Shown piece after piece: positions 23,201 through 61,662 of a DNA stretch of 64,000 nucleotides. Both the position numbers and the translations under genes were made by a program. The DNA comes from Octopus vulgaris. Its lineage: Eukaryota. Position 1 is the first letter of the stretch. Each line of letters opens with the position of its first letter. The notes beneath the pieces were generated by a model. That model was not told the origin of the DNA. It saw nothing but the letters and a program-made list of their open reading frames with translations, and did no database searches. The stretch covers positions 59,334,001 through 59,398,000 of the forward strand of contig OX597831.1 of NCBI GenBank assembly GCA_951406725.2, given 5' to 3'.

Positions 23201-23856
23201 AGATCAATGTTTAGATATTACTTACGGGATGAACAGATAATTACTAAAACTCTTTAATTACGGAGTCATTTGTGGAACTACCAAAAATAGGAACATAGCA
23301 TTAGAAATTCATATTGATTTCAAACATCTTATACATGACTGAAATTTGTTTTCATACACTACCTATAAATTAAATGAATTAAAACTGCTGGAAAGATATA
23401 ATCGTACTGTATAAATTAAACGCAGAGGTATACCTCACATCAGCTGCATTGAAGAAAATTTGATATCAGAGGAAATATTTATACAAATACTGTTGGTGTT
23501 ACCATTATACGCAAAGTCCACAAGCTGGAAATATCAATCTAGTAAAAGACTGAAGCCTTCATATTTTGGAATACATGGAAAATAGGTTACCATCAGATAT
23601 GTAGACAGATGTGGATACGACTTTTGAATATAATTTCTGCAGTTTGCATAACTGAAAATATCATTTGCAGATTCAGATTCTTCATGAGTATAAGTTTAGT
23701 AAAATGCGGCAATCATTCTAATAATTAAACCAGCAATAATTCTAGTGAAACTCTATGAATGCTGAAAGGTGAGTGAGAGATAGGAATATGAGGGAAAGGA
23801 TAACAAATAAATGATGTATTTTAAAGATCATACGAGTCATATATACATACACACAA

Positions 23857-23913
<57 letters not shown>

Positions 23914-23926
23914 CAGATCTCACTAT

Positions 23927-23973
23927 CCTGGGCTGATGACGGGTTAAGACCCAGAAACATGCATGTCCTCGGG
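23927..23973 (+). ncRNA. Type I hammerhead ribozyme
   Basis: CCTGGG-CTGATGA-CGGGT TAAG ACCC A-GAAA-CATGCATG-TC-CTCGGG: full core, palindromic stem III, GUC site at 23965-23967. Confidence 0.85.
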
Positions 23974-24280
23974 TGTGAATCTAGGCTGAAAGGGGTGCTT
24001 GCCTCCCCTTCACAAATATAAGGACACAGAAAATGTGTCAAAGCCGACAGGGAGCGCTCGATGCTTCCTGGGGCTAAACAGCGGTGGTGTAATTCCCATA
24101 TGGGTCTGTCACGTTAAGTTGACAGTATACAACCACTATATCGCTCCACCACCGCTCATGTCTCTTTGAGGCATTTAGAAATTTAATATTTCTGATTACG
24201 ATAACCAGTGAATAAATTTCACTGTAAATATATATATTTGTGAAGGCTGGACAGGCACCTCAATCAGCAGATCTCACTAT

Positions 24281-24327
24281 CCTGGGCTGATGACGGGTTA
24301 AAACCCAGAAACATGCATGTTCTCGGG
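24281..24327 (+). ncRNA. Type I hammerhead ribozyme (second tandem copy)
   Basis: CCTGGG-CTGATGA-CGGGT TAAA ACCC A-GAAA-CATGCATG-TT-CTCGGG; GUU site at 24319-24321. Confidence 0.82.
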
Positions 24328-24544
24328 TGTGAATCTTGGCCGATAGGGGTGCTTTCCTCCCCTTCACAAATATAAGGACACAGAAAATGTGTCAAAGCCG
24401 ACAGGAAGCGTTCGATGCTTCCTAGGGCTAAACAGCGGTGGTGTAATTCCCATACGGGTCTGTCACGTTAAGTTGACAGTATAAAACCACTCTATTGCTC
24501 CACCACCGCTCATGTCTCTTTGAGACATTTATAAATTTAATATT

Positions 24545-24581
<37 letters not shown>

Positions 24582-28438: not shown

Positions 28439-28461
28439 TCTACCATAGGAATGAGAACCCA

Positions 28462-28507
28462 GACACCTGATGAAGGCTGGTGGGTATATCAGTCGAAATG
28501 TCGTGTT
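28462..28507 (+). ncRNA. Minimal type I hammerhead ribozyme
   Basis: GACAC-CTGATGA-AGGCTGG TGGGTATA TCAGTC-GAAA-TG-TC-GTGTT; homologous copy at 56946-56991. Confidence 0.75.
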
Positions 28508-28962
28508 AACAACAAACAAGATGGGGACAAATATCCGTCAAATGTAAATAATATAAATAAATAAATAATAATAGCAGCACACGTTCCAGTTCAATATGAC
28601 TTCTTTATTGTTTGTCAGTTAGTTAGGTTAGGATTATAGTGATAACAACACAGAAGGAAATTCGTATAAATGAATACATGCAATCTCTCGCTCTCTCTCT
28701 CTTTATATATATGTATATATATATATATAAACTCTTATGTTCCCAACGCAATCCCAAACAGCCCAACCAAATCAGATGCATGCTGAATACATTTGGTGTT
28801 CGTTAGGTATGCTGATTTTATGTGTCTTGATTATGCCTGCACTGACGATTGAAAAGTACATTTTGTGCACTAATTATGAAATCATATGATCTGCGGCTGA
28901 ATCTGTTTTTAAGGAGCTCGCTGCGAGAGTTGCATACCCTCACGTTCGGTACACTGTATTTA

Positions 28963-29415
28963 TTATGGTAGTTTTGACTTTAAGAGTCCCTCGTAGCTTG
29001 AGGCATTTATGTATAGCAATGCTCTTAATATATATATATATATATATCCTTCATGCCAGGTTGAAGGGGTGTTTCTTTTGGTATGTCTTGGGTGGCATGA
29101 ATTAAATAGATGTTGGTTGGCATCTGGGGTTTTGTAAATTATGCCGGTTTCTATTTTTAGACTTATTATTTTAATTAGTATATTCAAGAATCGGAACTCC
29201 TTTTCGTTGTATTCTATTGTGAACTGTATGATGCGGTTCAATAGTCTTTTCAATTCCAGGAGTTTGTCTGTGTTTTCATTCCAGAGGATGAAACTTTCGT
29301 CTAGGAATCTTTTCCAATTTTCTTTTATGTGTTGCGAAAGAGCGCTTCCAAAGGTGGATAATAAAGTTTCCTGGTATATTATTATTTCTAGATAGCCCAT
29401 TCTTAAGTTCGCATT
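28963..29415 (-). mobile_element. Penelope-like element RT fragment
   Basis: ANLRMGYLE...WKRFLDESFILW...IQFTIEYNEKEFRFLNILI...IETGIIYK.PD..QHL.FNSCHPRHTKRN.P matches PLE RT domains 5-7 and thumb. Confidence 0.9.
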
Positions 29416-29429
29416 GTCGATAAAATGTC

Positions 29430-29779: not shown

Positions 29780-29840
29780 GATAACGGAAGAGATGTCGGT
29801 GTGGATTTCCACCTCGGCATCCGAAACTCGGAGTTTTATC
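29780..29840 (+). ncRNA. Hammerhead copy with a core substitution (CGGAAGA)
   Basis: GATAA-CGGAAGA-GATGTCG...CGGCATCC-GAAA-CTCGGAG-TT-TTATC. Confidence 0.65.
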
Positions 29841-29954
29841 ATGGCTACCGAATTATTGTCACATATTACATTTACAGATAAATTCCTCTATTTGCATAAT
29901 ATCGAGGTCTCTTTCATTCTTTTGTTATCTTAACATTTTTATCAATATATATAT

Positions 29955-30660
29955 AATTGTTGATGACGATCTCAGTTGGAGTGCACACATCAAGAAGAAT
30001 GTCGATATAGCTCGTAGGATGAGTTCCTGGATCTTAAGAACTTTCCGGTCCAGAGAACAAGGTGTCATCATACCACTTTTTTCCTCCCTTGTACGGCCAC
30101 ACCTTGAATACTGCTGCCCACTGTGGTCTCCCCATACAAGACAAAACATCTCCAGAATTGAGTCTCCCCAGAGGGCACTCACTAAACAAATTGAAGGCAC
30201 GGCCGCTCTCGATTATTGGGATCGCCTTAAAGCCTTGAAACTTTACTCCCTCCAGCGTCGCCGTGAGTGGTACATCATTTGTACGATGTGGAGAATATAC
30301 CGCCAACTTTGCCCAAACGACCTTAACATTAGCTTCAAGGTTCATCCCAGACTGGGACCACGGGCCATACGACCCCTGCCCAATTCAAGATCACAACATA
30401 CATGTGCACTGCAACATAATTTCTTTTCCTCGACAGGCCCTGTCCTATTTAACATTGTTCCGAGGGAGATCAAAGAGGAAAAGGATCCTATCAATTTTAA
30501 ACGGAGTCTGGATAGATTCCTTCAAAGAATACCAGATAAGCCACCCATAATTGGATACAACTCACCCAACAAGAACTCACTACTTGAACAAAATTTGACT
30601 TAAACAAAACTTGCCTTAAACAGGATTCGAATAATCCTATCAGGTGGTGCTATTAAGTTA
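29955..30660 (+). mobile_element. 5'-truncated CR1/L2-type LINE (RT C-terminal ORF 30019-30603 plus 3' UTR)
   Basis: IIVDDDLSWSAHI...LFSSLVRPHLEYCCPLWSP...IESPQR..TKQI...LDYWDRLKALKLYSLQRRRE...FNIVP.EI...FKRSLDRFL. Confidence 0.92.
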
Positions 30661-35760: not shown

Positions 35761-36533
35761 AGCCATCCCCTGAAGGTTACCACTGTCCGAGTCTTAGTGT
35801 AAACAAATCTCAGCTATTGTAGGCCATTCACTATTTGTCTGAATAAATATAGTAATGATTTTTGTTTCATGCAGAACTACATTTCATCAAAAAGAGTCTC
35901 TCCCAAAATTTCATGTTTGAAAGAAAAGCGAAGAGAGTACATTTTGTATTCTAAATATAACTCAAAGAGTAGAAAAAGAAAGTAAGAGGAAAACAGAAGG
36001 AAAAAGGAAGCAAAAAGATGAACACACTTCACCTACGTTTTTTCCAATTGCTCGAAGAAATGCCGGTATTTTTGCAGCCGACAAAAAACTGCGCTTGCAT
36101 GCGGTGGATTTGAAAAATTATAGTGTATAAGCAAGAGGCACATGCTGGATTTGCCTCGTACTTATATGTTTGATATGGCGTACCTGTTCATGGAGACTTC
36201 GCCTAGCAAATTATTTTATTTGGTAAAAAATCCAGAAACCATGGTCCAAGAAATATATGGTAAATATTTTTATTTTTCATTTCCTTCGAGTTTTTATCCC
36301 TAATAGTGGTTTGGACTTTAGCTGTTTCTTCTAGCGTGAAAGGAATCCTATGAAGGATACCTCTTATGTGCTTAAATGTACACTGTATCTACATGAATAA
36401 TATATAGTATATTGACTAATTTTTCTAGACGCTAGGCCACAGGTACTAAAAATTTCTAAAATATTTATTACCCTGATATATATATATAAATAAAAGAATG
36501 GAGTCGAACGAAGATGTTAGCAAAATTCCTTTA

Positions 36534-36615
36534 CTCTCGACGTATGTCTCGAAGACAGCATAGTTTTATTCCAAAGGAATAAAGGATGCAAGATGCAATC
36601 TTCTCATCAGGAAAG
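36534..36615 (-). ncRNA. Hammerhead copy with GAAA->GAGA substitution
   Basis: Minus strand: CTTTC-CTGATGA-GAAGA...TCTTC-GAGA-CATACG-TC-GAGAG. Confidence 0.62.
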
Positions 36616-36667
36616 AAAGAGAGCCTCTCTCAACATCAAGACAAATAAAAATTTCGAGGCTCCCTTT

Positions 36668-36749
36668 CTTTCCTGATGAGAAGATTGCATCTTGCACTCT
36701 TTATTCCTTTGGAATGAAACTATGCTGTCTTCGAAACATATGTCGAGAG
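36668..36749 (+). ncRNA. Type I hammerhead ribozyme with a long stem II
   Basis: CTTTC-CTGATGA-GAAGA[43 nt]TCTTC-GAAA-CATATG-TC-GAGAG; GUC site at 36742-36744. Confidence 0.83.
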
Positions 36750-37000
36750 TAAAGGAATTTTGCTAACATCTTCGTTCGACTCCATTATTTTATTTATTCA
36801 TATATAACACAAATTTCTGCACATGAACCGGAGTTTCTACTCTTGGATAGGTCGCTTGAACCGTGTTTCTGACGTGAATTTGCTACCCTGGTATCGGTTC
36901 ATCGAATTTTCCATGCTGACGGTAAACAGGGGATAATTCATTCACCTATATATATATGTGTGTGTATATATATAAAAATTAGAGAAAAAGCACTATTATA

Positions 37001-45162: not shown

Positions 45163-46108
45163 AGTAAAGAAAAAATAGTAAAGAAAAAATAAGATGGCTA
45201 GCAGCAGGCTGTTTCGCCTCATACCGAAGGAATTAGAAATGGCAGTCAAAGACCGTTTTTCCATTTTCTATAAGTGGAGAATCCAAAAGCGAAGGCCCTT
45301 ACGGCTCACATACACAAAACCGGAGTGGCAAATATACGAAATCAGTCACTTACCGTTAACAGCGAACACGTGTTTCTGGTTCGCAAACATAGAAATTAGT
45401 TTGAATTCCGTCATCGGCGCTATATTCGATAGCTTTACCAAATGCCACCAGCCCTCACTTCTGACCCAGCGACATCAGATAGTGGGGTAAGAGCGCAGAT
45501 GTTAAAACTAAGTAGCGACTGGGAACGTAAATTTTCCCTCCAAAATTCTGGCATGCGCGCTTTCTGGGTAATCGTAATGGAATGAGGAATCCACATGGTA
45601 ATGCAATAAAGATGGTAAATAATTTTCCTGTGGTTTTTCATGTAACCAACAATTATTTACCGGTAAATTTCGGTATGTAAATACGACAAATTAATTGTCA
45701 GGACCTTTGTAAGGTTCAGTATATAGTAAAGAAAAAATAAGATGGCTAGCAGCAGGCTGTTTCGCCTCATACCGAAGGAATTAGAAATGGCAGTCTAAGA
45801 CCGTTTTTCCATTTTCTATAAGTGGAGAATCCAAAAGCGAAGGTTTTGTGTATGTGAGCCGTAAGGGCCTTCGCTTTTGGATTCTCCACTTATAGAAAAT
45901 GGAAAAAACGGTCTTTGACTACCATTTCTAATTCCTTCGGTATGAGGCGAAACAGCCTGCTGCTGGCCATCTTATTTTTTCTTTAGTATATACTGAACCT
46001 TACAAAGGTCCTGACAATTAATTTGTCGTATTTACATACCGAAATTTACCGGTAAATAATTGTTGGTTACATGAAAAACCACAGGAAAATTATTTACCAT
46101 CTTTATTG

Positions 46109-46111
<3 letters not shown>
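45163..46111 (-). mobile_element. pLTR/retrozyme-like insert: 549-bp unit, partial tandem repeat and inverted copy
   Basis: 45177-45294 is repeated at 45726-45843; 45602-45843 is inverted at ~45866-46111. Confidence 0.85.
45361..45421 (-). ncRNA. Type I hammerhead (CCGAUGA core)
   Basis: Minus strand: AGCG-CCGATGA-CGG AATTC AAAC..GTTT GCGAA CC A-GAAA-CACGTG-TT-CGCT. Confidence 0.75.
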
Positions 46112-46173
<62 letters not shown>

Positions 46174-56614: not shown

Positions 56615-56945
56615 ATAGGAGAAGGAAAGATCCAGAGAAGGGAAGACAGAGGGAAAAAATCGCCAACGGTACACACGAGGTCACATATTGAAAGACCGGA
56701 AGCAGTACATCTGATATAGGATGAAATTTTAAAAAACAATTATCAGTGGCCAGCATATTAAAAAATACCCTTTAAGGTGAAAATTATAAACAACTTACAA
56801 ATAAGGGGAAAAAAAAAGAATTCTATGCCAAAGTATACCGAGAATAGACTTTAAATCGTAAATAACCAGAAATAATTCATTACTATAAGCACATATCTCG
56901 AAGCAAGCTGACAGAAATTTCTAAAAAATACCTAAATTTCCCTAA

Positions 56946-56991
56946 GACACCTGATGAAGACTAGCGGTTATATCAGCCGAAAAGTTGTATT
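56946..56991 (+). ncRNA. Degenerate minimal hammerhead (family of 28462)
   Basis: GACAC-CTGATGA-AGACTAG..TATATCAGCC-GAAA-AG-TT-GTATT; the ~55 bp downstream also match 28508-28560. Confidence 0.6.
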
Positions 56992-57477
56992 AACAACTAA
57001 CAAAATGAGGATAATTATCTGTCAAATGTAAATAATGTAAATGTATTTTCAGTCTTTTCTTTCGTTTTGTATTTCAAAAATATTTCCCCTTGTCAATGTT
57101 TTTCTAACCACACTAGTAATTGCCAAGAATTTGCCACTGACCATAAGGATGCTTTATGGTATTAAGTTTACTCATTGGATGCCAATGCTATTTGCCCGTG
57201 TTACGAGCCTGTTATGGCTTAAGGTTGATGTCGTAAAGTACATGGCCTAGTTCTATTTTGTCATATTGTCCTAATTCGTTCCTTTTATCTTATCCTTTGG
57301 CAGTTGCGTTTTTCGACCATGAAGAAGAAAGCTTAGGCCAGCGGTTTCCTATAATTTCTGTCTCTCAATAGATCGATTATCGATCAATTAAGATTGAATC
57401 ATGAACATTCTCAAACGCTATAAGCTTTTGATGAATAAATAAAGGAGTATCACCCATTACTTCTGTCATATACATAC

Positions 57478-60194: not shown

Positions 60195-60400
60195 AGTAAA
60201 AAATCAGCAGATCTGTAAGATTTTCAAAGAGGTCGTATTGTTGAGCAATCTGAGGCTGGACTTAGCCAGCGTAAAATTGCCGAAAATTTTAGAATTTTTC
60301 TTGCTACTGTTAATAGAATTATTGTGAAATTCCAAAGCCAAGGAAAAGAATCAATAGATTCTCGTTCAGCGCGACCTGGGCCCTCAGAAAGGAAGAGAAT
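60195..60400 (+). pseudogene. Tc1-like transposase N-terminal HTH fragment
   Basis: [47 protein letters not shown]...RSARP. Confidence 0.75.
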
Positions 60401-61662
60401 TGTGGAATACAAACCCCGTTCGAATGGGTTTGGCACAAGCAAAAAATATATGTGTAGACGTTTATGTGTGCATACGTGTGGTGGTGGTGGTGAGGGGGGG
60501 CATAGCCTTAGGGCTGAAACGTATAAACGAATAAAAGAATATGTATTAGTCAGTTGTGGGGGCTGGGGACTCCTCTCACTTGGAATAATAATGGTCAAAT
60601 TACAAAGAATTATCATTAATATTATTAAGGCAGCGAGCAGTGAGAATCCTTAGAACGTCGGCCCAAATGCTTTGTGACTTTTCGGCCATTTCTGCGTAAA
60701 TAGTCCAAATCCATCCTAGGTCAACTTTCATCGTTTTGATGTCCATCGTTTCGGTGTCCACAGAAAAAATTACTACTATTGCCCTAGGTCTATCTAATTA
60801 ACTAGCATCCTCGCACGAAATGTCAAGCTTTGAGTTTATAAAAATGAGAAGTATTAATGCTATTATTTATACGCATAAAATACATGAATATTGGCTTGGA
60901 AAAATGACCTGCTGCATTTCGGGATAGAGACAAACTATTGCCTACTTGGCATTTGATAAATTGATATATTTAATAGCATATCCCCTCATTCTTGAAAACT
61001 TAATTCCATTTATTTGGAAAATTGCTCACAAATCGATGCCAAAATTCTTCAGATTTTGAAGCAAAGTGAAATAGAGTATAATTGTTTAATTACTTAACTT
61101 GTGTCCCGCTCAATGTTACAATAGTCCGAAAAGATGACTGTTATATGAATTCAAGTTATGAAAAGAATGAGGAGAGACTAAACCTACCATAAATATTATC
61201 ATAATCTTTCTCTGAAATATTTGGGCTCGATGTGGTTAGCAATATCATGTAATATTAACACCCCTGTATCACTGACTAAAGATGTGTGTTTTTGCAACAA
61301 CTATTCCTTGAAAGAGTCTAATTTAGGACAATGCTTCTCTACATTAATATCTTGGTTTTTGACTTACATTTTTTATTATAAATCTTGCATCAAAAAGTGA
61401 GCATAATGTTTTTACGGTTGCAGTTCCGGTTTAGGCATACATACTCATTTTTCATTGGATGGAAACCATTGTCATTTCTGTCTAAGGTATTATTCAGGCA
61501 TTAAACTATGACTCCACTGCATCCTTGAACAGAAAGAATTATAAGCTATTGAAGTTGTAATTTTTTAAATCCTATTGTACACTCATATAGTACTTCCTTC
61601 TGAAACTGAAACAGACGTATATTTAGTTTGTACACCAGGTTGTTGGTCACGCAATTCCTAAG

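Follow-up and report, generated by a model that had tools for sequence, protein, structure and literature searches.

The repeat at 23909-24550 of the window, the 64,000-nucleotide stretch of Octopus vulgaris DNA analysed here, is a slightly decayed, ordinary member of a described class, the non-LTR retrozymes. We consider it reasonably probable that this locus is a 1.8-unit copy of a dispersed non-coding hammerhead repeat whose transcript would be cut through a dimeric hammerhead into a monomer or circle and inserted by an enzyme borrowed from Penelope elements. The retrozyme class itself is known; what our analysis suggests at the level of the family is a candidate internal promoter and a set of LINE-carrying, protein-coding composites, both of which were overlooked in the original prediction made for this DNA.

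The window copy and its hammerheads

The features of the locus are as follows.

23839-23910, no strand: (TA)n array, left flank; likely insertion target
23909-24262, plus strand: unit 1, complete, 354 nt; its start is the putative transcription start (unit position 1)
23916-23982, plus strand: type I hammerhead 1, called from cores, folding and covariation
23927-23932/23968-23973, plus strand: stem I of hammerhead 1, with a distal extension
23933-23939, plus strand: core CUGAUGA of hammerhead 1, with stem II at 23941-23944/23949-23952 and GAAA at 23954-23957
23957-23966, plus strand: palindromic stem III of hammerhead 1, with GUC at 23965-23967 and a predicted cut after 23967
23968-24321, plus strand: predicted cut-to-cut monomer, 354 nt; a branched rod closed at the hammerhead
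24127-24146, plus strand: AC-rich loop of a stem-loop (unit 219-238); first fixed 3' end and likely reverse-transcription start 1
24142-24196, plus strand: Penelope-type 'tail' of ~55 nt (unit 234-288), terminating at the second fixed 3' end
24228-24239, plus strand: TATA-like box (unit 320-331), which doubles as one arm of the RNA rod
24259-24267, plus strand: initiator-like site at the unit junction; insertion place of the LINE module in other copies
24263-24550, plus strand: unit 2, cut short at unit position 288, where the tail ends
24270-24336, plus strand: hammerhead 2, core intact, triplet GUU at 24319-24321, predicted cut after 24321
24549-24578, no strand: (TA)n array, right flank

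The direct repeat (23909-24196 and 24263-24550) spans 288 nt at 95% identity with a spacing of 354; at this shift 265 of 280 bases are identical, compared with 57-92 at the 29 other shifts tried. Since unit 2 ends at unit position 288, the locus comprises 1.81 units rather than two. The original prediction of two units with intact hammerheads thus stands for the direct repeat and for the presence of both cores, but not for the number of units nor for the second cut triplet, which is GUU instead of GUC. The two predicted cuts are exactly 354 nt apart, as had been proposed, and the absence of an open reading frame is confirmed: no ATG-initiated ORF exceeds 29 aa and no stop-free frame exceeds 67 aa, in a unit that is non-coding, has no LTRs and has a GC content of 0.449. 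The (TA)n arrays reported on both sides are present, and are weakly informative by themselves because the window contains 108 tandem-repeat entries, most of them microsatellites.

Both units carry three alleles that are rare in other loci, and they differ from each other at 15 sites, with one rare allele each time (eight in unit 1, seven in unit 2). This combination of shared rare alleles and private differences indicates that both units derive from one template and that each has since decayed by ~2.6%. The GUU of the second cut triplet is itself a private change, as T is found at this position in one of 65 other loci and C in about 62. The window holds the sole same-strand pair lying one unit apart among 49 exact cores in the genome; three other near-dimers are seen (L002, L192 and L193).

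The conserved hammerhead words CTGATGA (at 23933 and 24287) and GAAAC (at 23954 and 24308) recur in both units, and the self-complementary stem III that had been noted is the palindrome ACATGCATGT at 23957-23966; the base of stem II has a C.A mismatch. No hammerhead family was matched in Rfam, either at the gathering score or at E<=10, so the call rests on motif, folding and covariation. For the last of these we aligned 22 natural hammerheads from the window subfamily and related subfamilies; since the core was part of the pattern used to select them, its conservation is not evidence. Across stems I-III, 96.6% of cells are paired compared with 80.9% in shuffles, and none of 500 shuffles reaches the observed value, a result that is not to be read as a probability because the 22 sequences are related. 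Two-sided changes occur in 9 of the 12 hammerhead pairs, and slid controls give at most 52%.

Folding predictions favour cleavage by a dimeric hammerhead, as the original prediction had it. A single hammerhead is predicted to misfold, and in a 642-nt tandem transcript the cost of forcing single hammerheads would be 10.7 and 8.3 kcal/mol, as against 1.4 kcal/mol for a dimeric hammerhead at the site cutting after 23967 and 4.6 kcal/mol at the second site. In these models the dimeric form would therefore arise far more easily than the single ones, while the full double hammerhead (+5.7 kcal/mol) is predicted to be rare. The cut-to-cut monomer has a predicted fold of -141.5 kcal/mol (z -9.74), forming a rod that closes at the hammerhead, and as a circle it reaches -137.5 versus -85.9 +/- 5.5 kcal/mol. 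In a consensus fold of the monomer body from 10 copies, 11 of 71 pairs show two-sided change, with an unfavourable covariation term of +1.6.

Several other features of the window and of the sampled loci are worth recording. On the plus strand, two related small hammerhead-like motifs of a different family (CTGATGAAG...GAAA; 28445-28550 and 56935-57030) are typical of Penelope terminal repeats, the first of them following a (TTA)n/(TAA)n array; hammerhead-like motifs of yet other families are seen at L106:8685-8790, L036:4151 and L148:640. Near-perfect inverted repeats at 45599-46113 (217 nt, 96%) and 36474-36809 (154 nt, 94%) are either MITE-like or inverted retro-insertions. By eye, a 272-aa frame at 29785-30603 (plus strand) resembles the C-terminal part of a CR1-type LINE reverse transcriptase (RT), with no match in Pfam, and a frame at 60219-60653 (plus strand) resembles the N-terminal part of a Tc1/mariner transposase.

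Family structure and routes of mobilisation

A search of the genome (2.8 Gb in 227 contigs) bore out the expectation of further copies, yielding at least 92 matches to the unit (40 scored of 2194 candidates) dispersed over many contigs, together with 49 exact 34-nt cores and 36 exact junction words; reversed-pattern controls gave none. We mapped 67 distinct loci (70 fetched, with the duplicates L003, L030 and L009 dropped), which were picked by score or pattern and so represent a non-random sample of part of the family. The unit end is joined directly to a unit start in 56 of them, both orientations are present in 29 as inverted 5' parts, and 13 have a target duplication of 8-18 bp. Internal 3' ends are concentrated at two places: among 101 such ends, 44 lie at unit positions 225-240 and 39 at 282-292, with 18 elsewhere. 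The circular permutation anticipated among the copies is accordingly not random, there being two fixed 3' ends and no copy that reaches two units. Among 60 runs that cross the junction, 27 are longer than one unit; two full units are not attained in any of them, nor does any begin at the cut site. The longest end at unit positions 1, 9 and 25, and four further runs at 11-37. Tandem units within one locus agree at subfamily sites in 62 of 71 comparisons (40.8 expected), and inverted parts in 119 of 126 (72.2 expected).

Penelope elements are characterised by partial tandem copies, inversion of a 5' copy and a tail on one side (PMC8557442), and the Penelope tail has been traced to two internal starts of reverse transcription, in an AC-rich stem-loop (PMC11167929). 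The first fixed 3' end of the octopus family falls within the AC-rich loop at 24127-24146, in parallel with that description. The Penelope-type mobilisation that had been proposed is thus borne out by the structure of the ends, with their two fixed 3' positions, tail and inverted parts, and these sequences make it likely that Penelope-type enzymes spread the family. In a homologous but more distant unit family (L108, L151 and L232; 58% over 320 nt) the hammerhead core is degenerate, and this family too is LINE-targeted. Family contigs were also found in four sequencing runs, one contig spanning the junction and hammerhead in a run presumed to be RNA, which makes them uninformative on expression; the private allele of the window at 24343 is absent from the family contigs of these four runs, none of which is recorded as RNA.

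We also searched for an autonomous partner. No coding Penelope element with the unit as its terminus was found in the loci examined, in agreement with the original prediction that the unit should not simply be the end of such an element. The termini of 23 Penelope-RT loci and of 30 loci selected for GIY-YIG do not match the unit, and an RT or GIY-YIG ORF is absent from the window repeat and from the long forms examined; of 66 unit-bearing loci just one has a Penelope ORF as a neighbour, and that ORF belongs with a separate terminus, with (TA)n in between. One of the GIY-YIG-selected loci (L231) resembles a host gene. A young and abundant Penelope family whose ORF is 811 aa long was considered as the partner and rejected, as the sequence that it has in common with the unit is a 17-nt AT-rich word only. 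A young element with such an ORF (L084:1195-7116, on G000:C1) has an inverted part that is 99.8% identical and no canonical hammerhead by pattern search. A Penelope-type RT fragment in the window (28963-29427, minus strand) is ~75% identical to the abundant family (10264 candidates).

Taken in order, the route that we favour would begin with transcription from the TATA/initiator-like site at the unit junction, just 5' of the hammerhead. In the transcript, two hammerheads are predicted to pair via the palindromic stem III and to cut after GUC, releasing a monomer that would fold into a rod closed at the ribozyme and that a host ligase, by analogy with other species, may circularise. A Penelope RT/GIY-YIG protein would then nick AT-rich DNA, a mechanism suggested by the ends that we observe, and copying would begin at an internal site near unit ~233 or ~288, pass one unit length and often add an inverted 5' part. 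The window copy afterwards gathered its 15 private differences, including the one in the second cut triplet. Where a LINE module sits at the junction it could use the retrozyme promoter, and the Penelope route could then move the composite again.

The two leading explanations differ on whether the circle or monomer serves as the template. We lean towards it, as the runs longer than one unit, the agreement of units within a locus and the shared rare alleles of the window are what one template would be expected to give. The lack of any run at two units, or from the cut site, keeps an uncut linear template as a real rival: the same non-autonomous Penelope-type element would be copied from a linear RNA with terminal redundancy, extending from the start site through the second RT start, with the hammerhead a side reaction and circles not an intermediate. 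In that case the window copy, with its span from the start site to the end of the tail, would correspond exactly to a single full-length cDNA, and the lost TATA box could be replaced by the flanking (TA)n. Seven long runs do end 5' at unit positions 1-37, never beyond and none at the cut site; L192 is a dimer whose two units carry hammerheads of different subfamilies, and 9 of the 71 site comparisons disagree; and in the Penelope system unprocessed RNA is the main template, hammerhead mutants insert normally and the ribozyme is dispensable in vitro (PMC11167929). We nevertheless regard this explanation as the less likely one. Were left and right units independent, the homogeneity seen within loci (62/71) would be lost over generations; the 67 loci include no source with an upstream promoter and two hammerheads; and the compensated stems of the hammerhead, together with closure of the rod at the cut site, imply that the product of cleavage was under selection. 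The ceiling below two units is no more than suggestive, as run lengths drop off fast.

It is very unlikely that the unit is just the pseudo-LTR of a coding Penelope element, with the window carrying its 5'-truncated end. Every end feature is indeed Penelope-like and the family was sampled in part, but the direct joining of unit end to unit start in most loci, the presence of LINE sequence rather than Penelope RT in all long forms examined, the unlike termini of the Penelope-RT and GIY-YIG-selected loci and the separate terminus of the sole neighbouring Penelope ORF beyond (TA)n all argue against it. Still more improbable, and already largely refuted, is a local tandem duplication or chance motif without ribozyme function; the silence of Rfam and the C.A mismatch at the base of stem II would fit it, against which stand the dispersed copies on many contigs, the fixed ends, the covariation and the z-score of the fold. 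An origin as a tRNA-derived SINE was dismissed by eye, the B-box-like word being missing from other subfamilies.

LINE-carrying long forms and a candidate promoter

At some loci a 1.7-kb module lies between one unit and the next, giving 2054 nt from cut to cut. The module encodes no RT; it carries a polyA signal and a single ORF, which is intact in two of 30 copies (460 and 463 aa) and has a weak zinc knuckle match, under the Pfam cut-off. A 3' end could be found in 28 of the 30 module loci, and in 19 of these 28, which include several diverged subfamilies, the hammerhead follows directly; on the 5' side there is a short duplication that matches the host, and a few modules are solo. For variants present in at least three copies, pN/pS is 0.14 over the N-terminal half of the protein, 0.47 over its C-terminal part and 0.8 over the linker, versus ~1 for singletons, which indicates selection on the module protein in source lineages.

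The relatives of the module ORF are the ORF1s of full-length LINEs (28% over 197 aa, E 5e-32), whose ORF2 of ~1132 aa encodes endonuclease, RT and zinc finger, and related modules have the 3' end of those full-length LINEs in common. The module is thus an ORF1-only LINE, with an ORF1 homologous to that of a full-length LINE, no ORF2, a shared 3' end and a target duplication; judged from domain content, the passenger family appears Tx1/L1-like. Two ORF2-bearing LINE copies likewise end just 5' of a hammerhead. A single protein homologue of the passenger gene, labelled Octopus bimaculoides, was obtained (one match among 7999 scored candidates); protein searches gave no significant match in the PDB, and recognition in the Atlas was below threshold and serves as a lead only. 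In the composites L044 and L051 the 3' ends are of Penelope type and module sequence is part of the inverted 5' segment, so that these composites were likely moved whole. We rejected splicing as an account of how long and short forms are related, as the junctions differ in sequence and the module, which also occurs solo, has a polyA signal and a target duplication, and we disfavour derivation of the short unit by deletion of the long form, the module being homologous to independent LINEs.

Additional observations were made on the modules. At L092-L100, L147 and L152 (G000:C4, C1, C14, C12 and C19), ORF1-only modules from several subfamilies, in places accompanied by full-length LINEs, form head-to-tail arrays that are inserted at one site after a TATA box; we take these arrays to be reminiscent of those of HeT-A/TART, but within chromosomes. 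At L034 and L038 the 5' leader is doubled, as if the module had brought the leader of its previous host to the new site. The solo module at L043 carries ~14 nt at its 5' end that resemble the 5' end of U1 snRNA, a likeness left unconfirmed by Rfam.

Within the retrozyme, the LINE insertion point lies ~30 nt after the TATA-like box, at an initiator-like word. The same ~30-nt spacing from a TATA box is found in unrelated hosts, one of them an LTR-like promoter that has both a CCAAT and a TATA box, with four others besides; modules lie at this distance after the TATA box of the LTR-like promoter in L094, L104, L110 and L111, the last with a protease-like ORF downstream. We examined 30 ORF2-bearing insertions selected blind to their target, of which 11 have a duplication of at least 12 bp and 19 are unscorable. 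A TATAWA motif is present 24-36 nt upstream in 5 of the 11 scorable insertions, versus a background of 4.8% (binomial 9e-5), with the provisos that this interval was chosen after the first cases were known and that 6 of the 11 lack the motif. As two of the five TATAWA-bearing insertions are clearly 5'-truncated, selection for expression cannot account for those. An earlier, host-biased set had shown a TATA motif at 20-36 nt in 10 of 21 insertions with a duplication (background 5.2%); the blind test is the better one, since 18 of the 39 insertions in the earlier set have no duplication and several of the 21 are array-internal.

Insertion of a LINE at a TATA/initiator-like site suggests that the retrozyme has an internal promoter. 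Alternatively, the TATA-like box of the unit may owe its conservation to pairing in the RNA and not to promoter function. We put forward, tentatively, a joint reading in which the retrozyme would have its own Pol II promoter immediately 5' of the hammerhead, the LINE would target start sites ~30 nt past TATA boxes instead of a particular sequence, and the ~2.05-kb coding unit, bounded by hammerheads, that results from insertion of ORF1-only derivatives would be amplified by the Penelope machinery. As part of it, the composite could be seen as a three-layer parasite, a piece of LINE in a retrozyme with both riding a Penelope enzyme; the ~2.05-kb composite is possibly also a protein-coding retrozyme circle. 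In the literature covered, which takes in neither Repbase nor most subscription papers, we found no TATA-relative LINE targeting in print, and in work on octopus Penelope elements and hammerheads, on octopus Tx1 LINEs and on retrozyme promoters we found no account of the arrangement described here.

Relationship to known elements

The anatomy of this family bears on the machinery that moves animal retrozymes and on their transcription, points that are open in the available text of a review (PMC7761336), according to which retrozymes seem to lack both a promoter and any motif pointing to a partner. The fixed ends, tail and inversions link the family directly to Penelope chemistry, and the retrozyme unit offers a small substrate for the question of circle versus uncut RNA. 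TATA-relative targeting, if true, would be a LINE targeting mode of relevance to transposon biology and promoter-directed insertion.

Among related systems, frog retrozymes have been tied to Penelope termini, with cleavage in one of nine dimers (bioRxiv 10.64898/2026.07.22.740005), and in octopus active Penelope and L1-Tx1 families have been listed in a report whose available text leaves ribozymes unmentioned (PMC13282606). The class of metazoan non-LTR retrozymes was defined in PMC7229834, and the window repeat family belongs to it, with cleavage and circle as predicted properties. Where the class is recognised by at least two consecutive hammerhead units of 150-450 bp, the window has two hammerheads 354 nt apart in 1.81 units. 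In common with other members the family has a non-coding tandem unit in that size range, a type I hammerhead per unit, a GC content of 45%, no LTR, PBS or PPT, longer target duplications, a highly paired predicted circle and a weak stem III that suits dimeric cleavage. It differs in that the 67 loci of the octopus subfamily contain no arrays of two or more full units, and in its explicit Penelope tail, inversions, candidate internal promoter and LINE-carrying 2-kb composites.

With endonuclease-positive Penelope-like elements (PMC8557442; PMC11167929) the family shares partial tandems, an inverted 5'-truncated copy, a tail on one side, internal 3' ends at two places of which one lies in an AC-rich stem-loop, AT-rich or (TA)n targets and a hammerhead near the start. 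In contrast to those elements, as far as they are described in the available text, the octopus unit is without RT or GIY-YIG, has a tail of ~55 nt rather than 30-40, and has extended stems I and II in place of a minimal hammerhead.

The passenger, finally, resembles LINEs of the Tx1 clade, which target other repeats and add 5' leaders (PMC4494074), and ORF1-only LINEs, which were already known (PMC5786205) and include HAL1, HeT-A and Ag-Sponge: it has an ORF1 with a zinc knuckle, a polyA signal, a target duplication of ~15-20 bp and a 3' end in common with full-length endonuclease-RT elements, and it inserts into other repeats, forms head-to-tail arrays and inherits 5' leaders. The targets named for the Tx1 clade in the available descriptions are U2, U5, 5S, satellites, microsatellites and particular transposons, whereas what the passenger's insertion sites have in common, across unrelated hosts, is a TATA box ~30 nt upstream.
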